64,000 nucleotides of DNA from Octopus vulgaris (Eukaryota). The notes below the pieces were generated by a model that ran no database searches, was not told the origin of the DNA, and saw nothing but the letters and a program-made list of their open reading frames with translations. Location of the stretch: positions 9,920,001 through 9,984,000 of the forward strand of contig OX597837.1 of NCBI GenBank assembly GCA_951406725.2, read 5' to 3'. Below, in pieces: positions 3,280 to 52,204 of the stretch (position 1 is its first letter; each line of letters opens with the position of its first letter). Both the position numbers and the translations under genes were made by a program.

Positions 3280-3672
3280 CAGAAGGAGCTTCTACAGGAC
3301 TAGAACTGTTTCATTCAAGAGAAATCTTCAGGAAGCTAGTTAACAAGAATTGTATAGGCATTTATACATTTAGGCAGGTTTATAGGGGTGGTGGTGGGGG
3401 ACTTTTTGGGGGTAGGCATAGCGCAAAAAAATCATACTTGGGGGAGTGGTCAAGGAGTCAGTGGTAAATTAGATAGAAGAATAAATAAAAGAATAAAAAA
3501 AGAATAAAAAAATAAAAAAATATAAAATTATATAGAAGAATAGAGTTTTAGGTAAATAAGGAAATTCTCAACACACACACATATACATACACACATACAT
3601 ACACACACACCCATATATATATATATATATACACACACACATATACATACATATATCTACATATATATATCC

Positions 3673-4814: not shown

Positions 4815-5218
4815 TGTGTGTATGTATGTGTGTATGTATATGTGTGTGTGTTGAGAATTTCCTTATTTACCTAAAACTCTATTCTTCTATATAATTTTAT
4901 ATTTTTTTATTTTTTTATTCTTTTTTTATTCTTTTATTTATTCTTCTATCTAATTTACCACTGACTCCTTGACCACTCCCCCAAGTATGATTTTTTTGCG
5001 CTATGCCTACCCCCAAAAAGTCCCCCACCACCACCCCTATAAACCTGCCTAAATGTATAAATGCCAATACAATTCTTGTTAACTAGCTTCCTGAAGATTT
5101 CTCTTGAATGAAACAGTTCTAGTCCTGTAGAAGCTCCTTCTATATAATAAATTAATTTTACTCTGCTATGTATTGAGTACCTTATTTACTGTGGTTAACC
5201 CCGAATCAACCCGGGACC
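4601..5218 (+). mobile_element. Right arm of inverted duplication; HHR-bearing element family P3
   Basis: Near-perfect inverted copy of 3278-3815 plus a further ~75-bp unique 3' end. Confidence 0.85.
5085..5135 (+). ncRNA. Type I hammerhead ribozyme motif
   Basis: AGCTTC-CTGAAGA-T TTC TCTT GAA T-GAAA-CAG ttctagtc CTG-TA-GAAGCT; 6-bp stem I, 4-bp stem III, GUA site, weak stem II. Confidence 0.8.
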
Positions 5219-9300: not shown

Positions 9301-9827
9301 ATTTGCGTGTATGTATGTGTATGTATATAGATATATGTATATGTATATGTAAGTATGTGTATATATATATGTGGGTGTATGGGGTGGGTATAAATGTAAG
9401 TTTTATTATATTGTATATGTGTGTTTGTATATGTGTCTGTCTAAAAATCTCACAGAGGTTGACCTTGCTCTTCATCTGGTCGGGGAACGATAAAATATGT
9501 ACCAGTAAAATATAGGAGTCGATATTATCGACTTAACCACTACCACACACCCCTTCAAAATTGCTGACATTGTCTTTGAATTAGAAAAAATTGTGTATGT
9601 ACGTGTGTGTATGTGTGTGTGTCAGTAATAGTACTCTAAAGTAAAGATTTTTGCCAATATAATGTGGCAGTCCCGGTTAGGACGAATGTTACTGTTATTT
9701 AGCCCCAGGAAGCATCGTAACTGAATATCTCTCTTTGAGAGATTTAGAAATAAGAATTTTTCTAGTTCATTAGATCAGTAACTGTGTGTCACTTGAAATC
9801 CCAAACAACATCTATTTTAGTGCTGTT

Positions 9828-9899
9828 GACACCGATGGATTGAATGGTACTGCCCAGGTGTCGAAACCATAATGATATCCGTGGGGCAGCTGATGAAGG
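9828..9899 (+). ncRNA. Candidate permuted/pseudoknotted hammerhead-like motif (family P5)
   Basis: GACACC..ATGGAT..ATGG-TA-CTGCCC-a-GGTGTC-GAAA-CCAT..ATCCGT-g-GGGCAG-CTGATGA; all core nucleotides and helix partners are present in non-standard order. Confidence 0.65.
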
Positions 9900-10098
9900 A
9901 GATATGTTGGATAGTTGGTATAGCTGTTTTTGTATGTGTGGAATAGTATTATAACACAGCGTTTTGATATATTTTCGAACAGGAATTTAGCAACGCCATT
10001 TCTATTACACAACAAAATATGCTTCAACACACGAATTCACATAAAGAATCTTTCACACCAAATACAAAAATTTTATACATATATATATATATATGTGT

Positions 10099-14205: not shown

Positions 14206-14485
14206 TCACATTTGTCACATTTTTTTCTTTCCTTGTTTTTACCCCTCTGCAAAGGAATTTTATTTAATTCTTTCGCAGGAAGGATTAGTTCGACGAGTCG
14301 TGTTCTGTCCTCATCTTCGAAACACGCATGGAGTTGAAATAGGGACAGCTGATGAAGGGAAATTTTCCTTGTGTTGTTTGTCTTGTACTTTGTTTTTTCA
14401 TTGTTAAAAAAAGGTCCGTTTCCATGTTTGTTTTTACGTTTTCGTTTCTCGTTGAGTTCTATGTCTATTTGTGGTGTCCTGTACT

Positions 14486-16063: not shown

Positions 16064-16902
16064 TAAAGTCGACCTCGGCGGAATTTGAACTCAGAACGCA
16101 GCGGCAAACGAAATACCTATTTCTTTACTACCCACAAGGGGCTAAACGCAGAGAGGACAAACAAGGACAGACAATCGGATTAAGTCGATTCCATCGACCC
16201 CAGTGAGTAACTGGTACTTAATTTATCGACCCTGAAAGGATGAAAGGCAAAGTCGACCTCGGTGGAATTTGAACTCACAACGTAGCGGCAAACGAAATAC
16301 CTATTTCTTTACTACCCACAAGGGGCGAAACATAGAGGGGATAATCAAGGACAGACAAACGGATTAAGTCGATTACATCGACCCCAGTGCGTCACTGGTA
16401 CTTAATTTAACGACCCTGAAAGGATGAAAGGCAAAGTCGACCTCGGCGGAATTTGAACTCACAATGCAGCGGCAAACGAAATACCTATTTCTTTACTACC
16501 CACAAGGGGCTAAACACAGAGAGAACAAACAAGGACAGACACACGGATTAAGTCGATTACATCGACCCCAGTGCGTAACTGGTACTTATTTAATCGACCC
16601 CGAAAGGATGAAAGGCAAAGTCGACCTCGGCGGAATTTGAACTCACAACGTAGCGGCAGACGAAATACCTATTTCTTTACTACCCACAAGTGGCTAAACA
16701 CAGAGGGGACAAACAAGGACAGACAAACGGATTGAGTCGATTCCATCGATTCCAGTGCGTAACTGGTACTTATTTAATCGACCCCGAAAGGATAAAAGGC
16801 AAAGTCGACCTCGGCAGAATTTGAACTCAGAACACAGCGGCAGACGAAATACCTCTAAGTAGTTCGCCCGGCGTGCTAACGTTTCTGCCAGCTCGCCGCC
16901 TT
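16064..16902 (-). mobile_element. SINE family B with 184-bp tandem array (~4.5 units)
   Basis: The G of AAAGTCGACCTC recurs at 16068, 16252, 16436, 16620 and 16804; one head (GGCGGCGAGCTGGCAGAAACG) at the right end. Confidence 0.92.
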
Positions 16903-17540: not shown

Positions 17541-17693
17541 TCCATGCCGGTGGCCACTCTAAGCTATTTCTCTTAGCGCATCAAGTTGCAGCTGCATGAT
17601 GCTGTCTTCCTGGCCTCCGTCCTACACTTCCTCCTACCTCATCAATATATTTTACTCTCTCATCTTAACTGCTTGAGGGATGTATATATACCT

Positions 17694-18477
17694 ATTTCTT
17701 TATTACCCACAAGGGGCTAAACATAGAGAGGACAAACAAGGATAGACATAGGTATTAAGTCGATTACATCGACCCCAGTGCGAAACTGGTACTTTCATTT
17801 ATCGACCCCGAAAGGATGAAAGGCAAAGTCGACCTCGGCGGAATTTGAACTCAGAACGTAACGGCAGACGAAATACCTATTTCTTTACTACCCACAAGGG
17901 GCTAAACATAGAGACGACAAACAAGGATAGACATAGGTATTAAGTCGATTACATCGACCCCAGTGCGTTACTGGTACTTAATTTATCGACTCCGAAAGGA
18001 TGAAAGGCAAAGTCGACCTCGGCGGAATTTGAACTCAGAACGTAACGGCAGACGAAATACCTATTTCTTTACTACCCACAAGGGGCTAAACATAGAGACG
18101 ACAAACAAGGATAGACATAGGTATTAAATCGATTACATCGACCGCAGTGCGAAACTGGTACTTTCATTTATCGACCCCGAAAGGATGAAAGACAAAGTCG
18201 ACCTCGGCGGAATTTGAACTCAGAACATAACGGCAGACGAAATACCTATTTCTTTATTACCCACAAGGGGCTAAACACAGAGGGGACAAACAAGGATAGA
18301 CATAGGTATTAAGTCGATTACATCGACCCCAGTGCGTAACTGGTACTTAATTTATCGACCCCGAAAGGATGAAAAGCAAAGTCGACCTCGACGGAATTTG
18401 AACTCAGAACGTAACGGCAGACGAAATACCGCTAGGCATTTCGCCCGGCGTGCAAACGTTTCTACCAGGTCGCCGCC
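17694..18477 (-). mobile_element. SINE family B, four-unit tandem array with 13-bp TSD
   Basis: TGTATATATACCT at 17681-17693 and 18478-18490 flanks four ~185-bp units and one head. Confidence 0.93.
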
Positions 18478-28585: not shown

Positions 28586-28952
28586 TGGAGAAGAGAAAAA
28601 GCCCTTATTGTCTGTTCCCTGTCCTGTTTCTTTATTTGTACTGTTTTTTCTTCATTTGTATTGTTTTTTTCTTCATTTGTATTGCTTTTACGTCCTATTT
28701 TTGTCACTTGTTTTACCCCTCTGCAAAAGAATATTATATAATTCCTTTTGCAGGAAGGACTGGTTCGACTGTGTTCTGTCCTTACCTTCGAAACACGCAT
28801 TGAGTCGAACCAGGGACAGCTGATGAAGGAGAATTTTCCTTGTATTGTTTGTCCTGTACTCTGTTTTTTCGTTGTTTAAAAAAAAGTACGTTTCCTTGTT
28901 TGATTTTATGTTCTCGTCTCTCGTGTTCTACGTTTATTTGTGGTGTCCTGTA

Positions 28953-45300: not shown

Positions 45301-45383
45301 ACATCCTGATGAGGGGAGTGCCATGATTAATAATATGAAATATGTCACATTCCTTGGTACATCGCTGAAACGGCCGTAGATGT
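45301..45383 (+). ncRNA. Type I hammerhead ribozyme motif with long stem II
   Basis: ACATC-CTGATGA-GGGGAGTGCCA...TGGTACATCGCT-GAAA-CGGCCG-TA-GATGT; 5-bp stem I, palindromic stem III, GUA site. Confidence 0.85.
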
Positions 45384-51807: not shown

Positions 51808-52204
51808 GGATCGGTTTGAACGGCAGTTTTTAACATAATTTCCACGTAACTAAACAGTTTTAAACTTCGTATACTGGTAGAATGTGTTTATAAAACATCT
51901 TTTTCTCTTGGCTTTATTGAGAAAATTCTATAGTTTGTAAGATATTTGTTTTTTTTCTGCAATTTCAACCAATCAATGACCATCTATTGAGGTGAAAACA
52001 TTCTGTGCCGTATGAATATGTCCCTCGTTTAAGAAATAGATTGGGTTTATTTACATTTCTGAAGAAAAAAAAGATACCCTTCCCCCCTAACTGACCCTAA
52101 CCCTAAAACATTAAATGCAATAGATCGATACTAGGGTCATAATTATGGGTGACAATTTCATATGACACCGCTAGAAAAAACTGCCGTTCAAACCGAAAAG
52201 ATCC
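51808..52204. mobile_element. MITE with ~24-bp TIRs, possibly Merlin superfamily
   Basis: GGATCGGTTTGAACGGCAGTTTTT ... AAAAACTGCCGTTCAAACCGAAAAGATCC; flanks GAAATAGT / GAAATATT (8-bp TSD, one mismatch). Confidence 0.72.

Follow-up and report, generated by a model that had tools for sequence, protein, structure and literature searches.

The window (the whole 64-kb stretch of octopus DNA analyzed here) contains the 3′ end of an octopus Naiad, a Penelope-like retrotransposon, and this tail carries an RNA motif with the core letters of a hammerhead.

9799 to 9972, plus strand: 3′ end (3′ UTR/pLTR) of a 5′-truncated octopus Naiad Penelope-like element (PLE), assigned from its copies, its 3′ end, and the upstream reverse transcriptase (RT); the 3′ limit is taken from loose read ends

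For positions 9799 to 9958 (approximately), a first look at the 2.8-Gb genome gave 1803 candidates, and 40 scored copies were 90 to 93% identical. The copies have variable 5′ ends and a common 3′ end before (TA)n, and the longer ones carry a decayed RT upstream of the motif, with a CxC-like motif in one of them (L093). The best homologs of this decayed RT are proteins of ~900 amino acids with an N-terminal GIY-YIG domain followed by a C-terminal RT and DKA, which is the Naiad order. The GIY-YIG, CxC, DKA, and RT features were observed through the longer copies and the homologs, the truncated window copy being without a coding part, and with tblastn, neither the window nor the 1.5 kb around P4 (a sister family, see below) or around the other families found by pattern yielded Naiad coding sequence. 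A (TA)n insertion bias, 5′ truncation, and identity to published octopus Naiad 3′ ends were also observed; by eye, 9799 to 9972 matches the 3′ ends of Naiad_Obim and Naiad_Ovul printed in the available part of PMC8557442. According to the same part of that paper (Craig et al. 2021), Naiads are without a canonical hammerhead, and Naiad_Ovul is flagged “HHR_half_core” with no structure given.

The Naiad-like proteins P0026 and P0039 have a C-terminal ubiquitin hydrolase (UCH, PF00443) after the RT; several Naiad-like loci have C-terminal extensions of 200 to 400 amino acids, and sequence downstream of the RT was noted in this context at L117, L118, L122, and L126. Just upstream of the window element, positions 9452 to 9545 may represent the 3′ part of a decayed octopus SINE, which they resemble. 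Elsewhere in the window, tandem arrays with a unit of 184 to 185 bp and ~4 copies each lie at 16065 to 16854 and 17688 to 18430, and this unit recurs near other loci.

The segments of the motif in the 9799-to-9972 copy are as follows.

9801 to 9803, plus strand: 5′ strand of helix IV, pairing with the tail after A9; its first pair is broken in the window copy, and the helix is placed by the parse of a near-majority copy (L013)
9804 to 9827, plus strand: hairpin V, which separates helix IV from stem II and carries damaging changes at 9811 to 9812
9828 to 9833, plus strand: detached 5′ strand of stem II (GACACC), starting with G10.1 and pairing with GGTGTC at 9857 to 9862
9835 to 9840, plus strand: 5′ strand of the outer helix IIIb (ATGGAT), an extension of stem III, pairing with ATCCGT at 9877 to 9882
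9844 to 9849, plus strand: block S, with the 3′ strand of stem III (ATGG-T, 9844 to 9848), pairing with A-CCAT at 9866 to 9870
9848 and 9849, plus strand: core letters of block S, U16.1 (9848) and H17 (A9849), with cleavage predicted by analogy between 9849 and 9850
9850 to 9855, plus strand: 5′ strand of stem I (CTGCCC), pairing with GGGCAG at 9884 to 9889
9857 to 9870, plus strand: block G, made up of the 3′ strand of stem II, G12-A13-A14-A15.1 (GAAA, 9863 to 9866), and the 5′ strand of stem III
9877 to 9882, plus strand: 3′ strand of the outer helix IIIb (ATCCGT)
9884 to 9896, plus strand: block C, made up of the 3′ strand of stem I and CUGAUGA (C3 to A9; CTGATGA at 9890 to 9896)
9897 to 9899, plus strand: 3′ strand of helix IV, directly after A9; position 9897 is T in the family majority and A in the window copy

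All of the segments and pairings that a preliminary description had named between 9828 and 9899 were found in place; of the outer helix ATGGAT/ATCCGT, which is present, the outermost pair is private to the window copy, the family majority having CC at 9835 to 9836 and a helix of 5 bp. From 5′ to 3′, the order is stem II 5′ strand, IIIb, block S, 1 nt, block G, IIIb, and block C, and the 5′ strand of stem I is joined to the 3′ strand of stem II through the single nucleotide 9856. Duplex energies in the window copy are −10.1, −8.1, −3.6, and −4.5 kcal/mol for stem I, stem II, stem III, and the outer helix, respectively; a stem II attached to CUGAUGA would have only −1.0 kcal/mol. The energy of hairpin V is −1.7 kcal/mol in the window copy versus −5.7 kcal/mol for the L013 segment, and helix IV is only 3 bp long in this family. 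The core sequences CUGANGA, GAAA, and UH are all present, and stems I, II, and III abut the core, with G10.1-C11.1 and A15.1-U16.1, as in hammerheads. In all six published permutations the 5′ strand of stem II lies within 0 to 2 nt of A9, which is not the case here, and we class the motif as a variant of the hammerhead because it fails this test of block C.

Of 160 positions, 10 differ between the window copy and the family majority, with none in the core or in stems I to III and three in helices IV and V; thus, the window copy keeps its core and stems I to III, and its helices IV and V are damaged. Genomic copies, the window copy included, decay neutrally, and selection acted on the source elements. 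We rejected selection on individual copies because private changes hit the core as often as the rest (0.015 versus 0.018 in one set of copies and 0.016 versus 0.032 in the other, neither difference being significant). When all changes are counted together, the core is spared in one of the two sets (P values, 0.007 and 0.08). One set has a changed G12 in 5 of its 27 copies and the other in 0 of 25, and 11 of 27 and 9 of 25 copies, respectively, still pass the descriptor described next.

This descriptor leaves the order of the blocks and the place of the stem II strand free, with a threshold score of 33, set after the data had been seen. In the window, it found this layout in the 9799-to-9972 copy (score, 43), in two P4 copies (39 and 41), and in a sprawling match at 52059 that just reaches the threshold (33). 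The preliminary description had proposed shuffled sequence as the control for its claim of a structure beyond chance, and that control came out in favor of the claim, with 0 matches of this layout in each of 50 block-wise dinucleotide shuffles of the window. The nested minimum free energy (MFE) fold of 9810 to 9920 is ordinary (z = +0.68), as one would expect when helices cross, which makes nested folding uninformative. Rfam gave nothing at the gathering score across the window and chance matches alone at 9700 to 10000 (E values of 4 to 7, including a C/D-box match at about 6); the Rfam hammerhead models are nested, and the S-G-C order is not expected to score with them. Two further places in the window were noted. 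Near-identical inverted repeat copies at 3293 to 3331 (minus strand) and 5091 to 5129 (plus strand) contain a subthreshold descriptor match (score, 32). An apparent canonical type-I PLE hammerhead, read by eye and with a weak stem II, lies at 45301 to 45383 (plus strand), with stem I at 45301 to 45305/45379 to 45383, CTGATGA at 45306 to 45312, GAAA at 45367 to 45370, and a loopless palindromic stem III.

The two P4 copies have the same five-helix layout.

14242 to 14359, plus strand: P4 copy, with H17 at 14304 and the core at 14349 to 14355
28716 to 28831, plus strand: P4 copy, with H17 at 28775 and the core at 28820 to 28826

P4 is a 765-bp tandem unit without RT similarity. At 8 of 30 loci (two of which are the same place), it continues past (TA)n into the start of the next unit, a read-on that would fit a multimeric or circular template.

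A search with a Naiad alignment gave 103 Naiad-like loci, 80 from metagenomes and 23 from metagenome-assembled genomes (MAGs); the latter (L183 to L205, some of them tandem) are likely eukaryotic contamination of prokaryotic bins. No Naiad relative was found in viral contigs. At a descriptor score of at least 33, 19 of the 103 loci match, all in the sense 3′ UTR (102 kb), and two duplicate pairs reduce these to 17 distinct matches. Of the 19, 12 have the window-type layout, 6 are true type CSG (L149, L160, L176, L178, L189, and L192), and 1 is a closed intermediate with hairpins between A9 and stem II. There were 0 matches in 391 kb of antisense DNA and 0 in 289 kb of coding or upstream DNA of the Naiad-like loci, and shuffled UTRs gave 0.15 matches per 97 versus the 17 observed. 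Left unconstrained, U16.1, a base other than G at 17, and C11.1 are present in 17 of 17 distinct matches, and core position 7 is variable (U, G, A, and C). Among the 84 loci without a match, 51 have <700 nt of downstream sequence and 33 have at least 700 nt. A quick RT tree, from which 6 of 105 rows were left out for short matches and from which we claim no order of events, placed the matches in two clades with both forms in each, and whole clades had none. Naiad-like elements are likely a host for type CSG, a permutation known from few sequences. By eye and among the matches listed (the first 50 of 62 places for one motif and the first 25 of 30 for another), the available part of PMC8557442 File S5 has the window-type layout in Beroe, three Acropora, and two more consensi and true CSG in Naiad-3_Nbra, Naiad_Hcon, and Naiad_Smim and a similar pair, so that the CSG-bearing consensi include nematode and spider Naiads; Naiad_Esco fits only in part.

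The motif recurs within the octopus genome as well. CGAAAC followed by CTGATGA 14 to 40 nt later occurs 8833 times (3264 + 4310 + 1259), and the reversed control occurs 845 times (188 + 238 + 419). Among 90 such pattern loci, three stems can be parsed in 22 and all five helices in 19; 68 were unparsed, and those inspected were decayed, truncated, or chance matches. The five-helix RNA is not confined to Naiads, because two families (L215, L236, L227, L234, and L235) carry it just downstream of the open reading frame of a LINE. The LINE C terminus just upstream of the motif has a CCHC knuckle and RVT_1-bearing homologs; Pfam gave no name for it, and it has an apparent restriction-like endonuclease motif; the name REL-type used here for these LINEs follows from such motifs together with the homologs. 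Our literature search found no paper on hammerheads in the 3′ UTRs of REL-type LINEs.

These counts bear on the alternative that short motifs fell into this arrangement by chance in one or two amplified repeats. The motifs are indeed short, copies within a family are not independent, and the MFE z score is ordinary. However, the arrangement recurs in a strand- and position-specific manner in 17 distinct nonoctopus loci spread over a deep RT tree, as well as in several families of the octopus that belong to two classes of retrotransposon, with null rates near zero. Contradicted by the UTR, antisense, and shuffle counts, by the window shuffles, and by the core letters in 17 of 17 matches, a chance origin is extremely improbable, and we rejected it.

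The preliminary description had compared two families and found no obvious similarity in their flanks. The sequences of the two families do differ, but the flanks hold two conserved helices that had been missed: the bases directly after A9 pair with the leader to form helix IV, and hairpin V fills the gap between this leader strand and stem II. Both were found in 12 of 13 independent examples versus 37 of 156 controls with swapped tails and 101 of 520 with shuffled leaders, and the thirteenth example fits when the nearer stem II strand is chosen. The upstream stem II strand reaches at least 5 bp in 15 of 16 examples versus 77 of 240 swaps, and 1 of the 16 attains 4 bp with an attached stem II. 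Junction linkers are 0 to 3 nt (all zero in 7 of 20 clusters), and the link between stems I and II is 1 to 5 nt in 19 of 20 clusters. The pair 10.1-11.1 is G-C in 20 of 20 clusters, and every other tabulated position has at least three standard pair types; in this table, the sequences were parsed by pairing and are thus paired by construction, some clusters are of the same family, and the octopus loci were picked with C11.1 fixed. Locus L195, the closed intermediate, shares this IV and V, and a loop closes its IV. Overall, stems I, II, III, IV, and V and the core letters recur with different sequences in many families. The earlier claims of a selected hammerhead-type structure with noncircular block order and of invariant catalytic nucleotides thus hold well beyond two families, with the core letters unchanged across divergent families.

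By analogy with known hammerheads, stems I to III would build the usual core, cutting after A9849. At the A9/G10.1 step, the chain would leave into helix IV and return through hairpin V; helix IV would be stacked on V, and the G12·A9 pair on stem II, as in a four-helix junction. The 1- to 5-nt link between stems I and II may replace the usual loop-loop contact, as in type SGC. Such an RNA would cut element or read-through transcripts 3′ of H17, so that tandem or pLTR arrays would yield RNAs of unit length. With priming at (TA)n, reverse transcription would then stop at or near the cut end unless the RNA was uncut, religated, or circular; helices II, III, and IV would hold the products together and may favor religation.

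Cleavage of this kind may leave a trace in the 5′ ends of retrocopies. We examined the first 100 of 1901 P4 copies listed, picked by their 3′-end motif. The 5′ ends occur at 0.00 to 0.07 per 15-nt bin, and the two bins ending at the predicted cut have 0.15 and 0.28. Of 79 copies at risk, 31 have their 5′ end within 23 nt on the 3′ side of the predicted cut, versus 1 in the 23 nt before the site and 2 in the 23 nt beyond (P of about 1e−17, with the site fixed beforehand and the 23-nt width chosen after seeing the data). The 31 ends are spread over many positions, with 4 within 2 nt of the predicted cut. In the 9799-to-9972 family, 10 of 63 copies end in the same 23 nt, a weak excess (P = 0.02; 80 of 347 copies taken, with 2 dropped because they had no 3′-anchored alignment), and other clusters lie at 9888 to 9891 and further upstream. 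The LINE families had no excess of 5′ ends at the site (2 of 50 and 0 of 32) in a sample less suited to this comparison, and 124 copies picked by their G and C blocks, a sample blind to the background rate, had no spike at the exact site; the 5′ end of L231 lies within 1 nt of the predicted site. Judged from these genomic copies, the P4 pile-up is likely a footprint of cleavage in vivo.

The same pile-up could arise if the motif were a noncatalytic 3′ UTR signal, either for RT or endonuclease binding or as a protein site resembling box C or a kink-turn, with RT stalling in the knot. Element 3′ ends are the usual place of template-recognition signals, and the motif lies at element 3′ ends; UGAUGA resembles box C, for which the C/D-box match noted above is a chance-level counterpart. 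RNA sequencing reads on the 9799-to-9972 family and family B (two runs, ordinary cDNA libraries) come from either direction, show no joints, and do not pile up with their ends at the site; they give no direct sign of cleavage but, as a weak test, count neither for nor against it. Nevertheless, a variable position 7 together with constant U16.1, non-G17, and C11.1 is the pattern of hammerheads and not of box C, and in related elements this place is taken by true CSG ribozymes. Moreover, the P4 stops lie just short of the predicted cut and cease at it. RT would encounter helices IV, I, and IIIb before the site, yet few stops occur in them (1 of 81 and 1 of 80 per 15-nt bin), so a nick followed by some trimming would fit P4 better than a structural block. 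We consider a noncatalytic signal improbable.

A less distant possibility, though one that we still regard as the weaker reading, is that the RNA is hammerhead derived and selected but off by default, being slow or switched on by protein, partner RNA, or refolding, with IV and V regulatory or with a clamp that favors ligation. Most copies extend through the site (48 of 79 for P4, among the first 100 of 1901, and 53 of 63 in the 9799-to-9972 family), so templates were often intact, and each of the helices II, III/IIIb, and IV connects the two products. In P4, the 3′ strand of stem II can also pair with G8-A9 and the tail, as read from the sequence, and noncircular hammerheads are slower than average according to the available part of PMC10085705. 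In contrast, the sharp edge of the P4 pile-up suggests frequent cutting at the site, and the core letters are invariant across divergent families.

For the window itself, we are rather confident that 9799 to 9972 is a neutrally decaying Naiad tail holding a likely self-cleaving hammerhead, whose detached stem II would be held in place by a predicted four-way junction of helices IV and V. More generally, the motif is a real and selected RNA of hammerhead-like type that likely functions as hammerheads do, with a topology that we did not find in the literature searched. We lean, with appreciably less assurance, toward a broader reading, in which an unrecognized five-helix hammerhead with the A9-G10.1 link replaced by a four-way junction is widespread in animals and other eukaryotes, is active in vivo (setting many retrocopy ends), interconverts with CSG in Naiads, and serves as a portable 3′-end processing module shared by Naiad PLEs and REL-type LINEs. 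The detached wiring would explain why Naiads were reported without hammerheads, and it offers a natural way to graft a two-helix domain onto a hammerhead core. Animal retroelements would be the likely home of type-CSG ribozymes, so far known from few metagenome sequences, and the P4 pile-up makes the role of hammerheads in Penelope-like elements testable from genome sequence alone.

The window element resembles published Naiads (available part of PMC8557442) in the GIY-YIG and RT of its homologs, (TA)n targeting, 5′ truncation, and tandem or inverted copies. The type-I hammerheads of canonical PLE pLTRs and non-LTR retrozymes also lie near the PLE 3′ end (PMC8557442 File S2; bioRxiv 10.64898/2026.07.22.740005; both in part), and P4, as a 765-bp tandem unit without RT, is like a retrozyme as described in the passages seen of the bioRxiv paper, which describe no Naiad ribozyme. 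Unlike the Naiad motif, however, these type-I hammerheads are arranged in the canonical circular order around a nested three-way junction (PMC8557442, in part). Among the core insertions treated in the available part of PMC3088659, none consists of helices after A9, and our search of openly accessible papers found no description of this wiring. The closest relatives are two permutations that cleave in vitro, types SGC and CSG, in the available part of Eckert et al. 2023 (PMC10085705). The preliminary description was right that a C-B-A layout is present, but this order was already published there as type SGC (HRIMA-1 and variants), and the new part is the detached stem II strand. Type SGC and the Naiad motif share the order site-GAAA-CUGAnGA, the core letters, three mutually crossing stems, and a short covalent link between stems I and II. 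In type SGC, the stem II strand comes directly after CUGAnGA and there is a I-II interaction helix, whereas in the Naiad motif helix IV occupies that place, the stem II strand is found upstream of block S, and the step from A9 to G10.1 is spanned by IV and V; the sources also differ, being viroid-like RNAs from metatranscriptomes and animal retrotransposons, respectively. Type CSG, described from a small metagenome alignment with two members shown to cleave and no host element given, has the same ring order as the Naiad motif. The window form differs from it in having IV and V inserted after A9, and its topology may be read as type CSG with these helices added (in closed form in L195), the ring then being opened within the loop of IV. 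In the same account, no known hammerhead has more than 1 to 2 nt between CUGAnGA and the stems, and block C is assumed to be uninterruptible; the Naiad motif, if it tolerates the break, would overturn this assumption and add openings beyond the six permutations.
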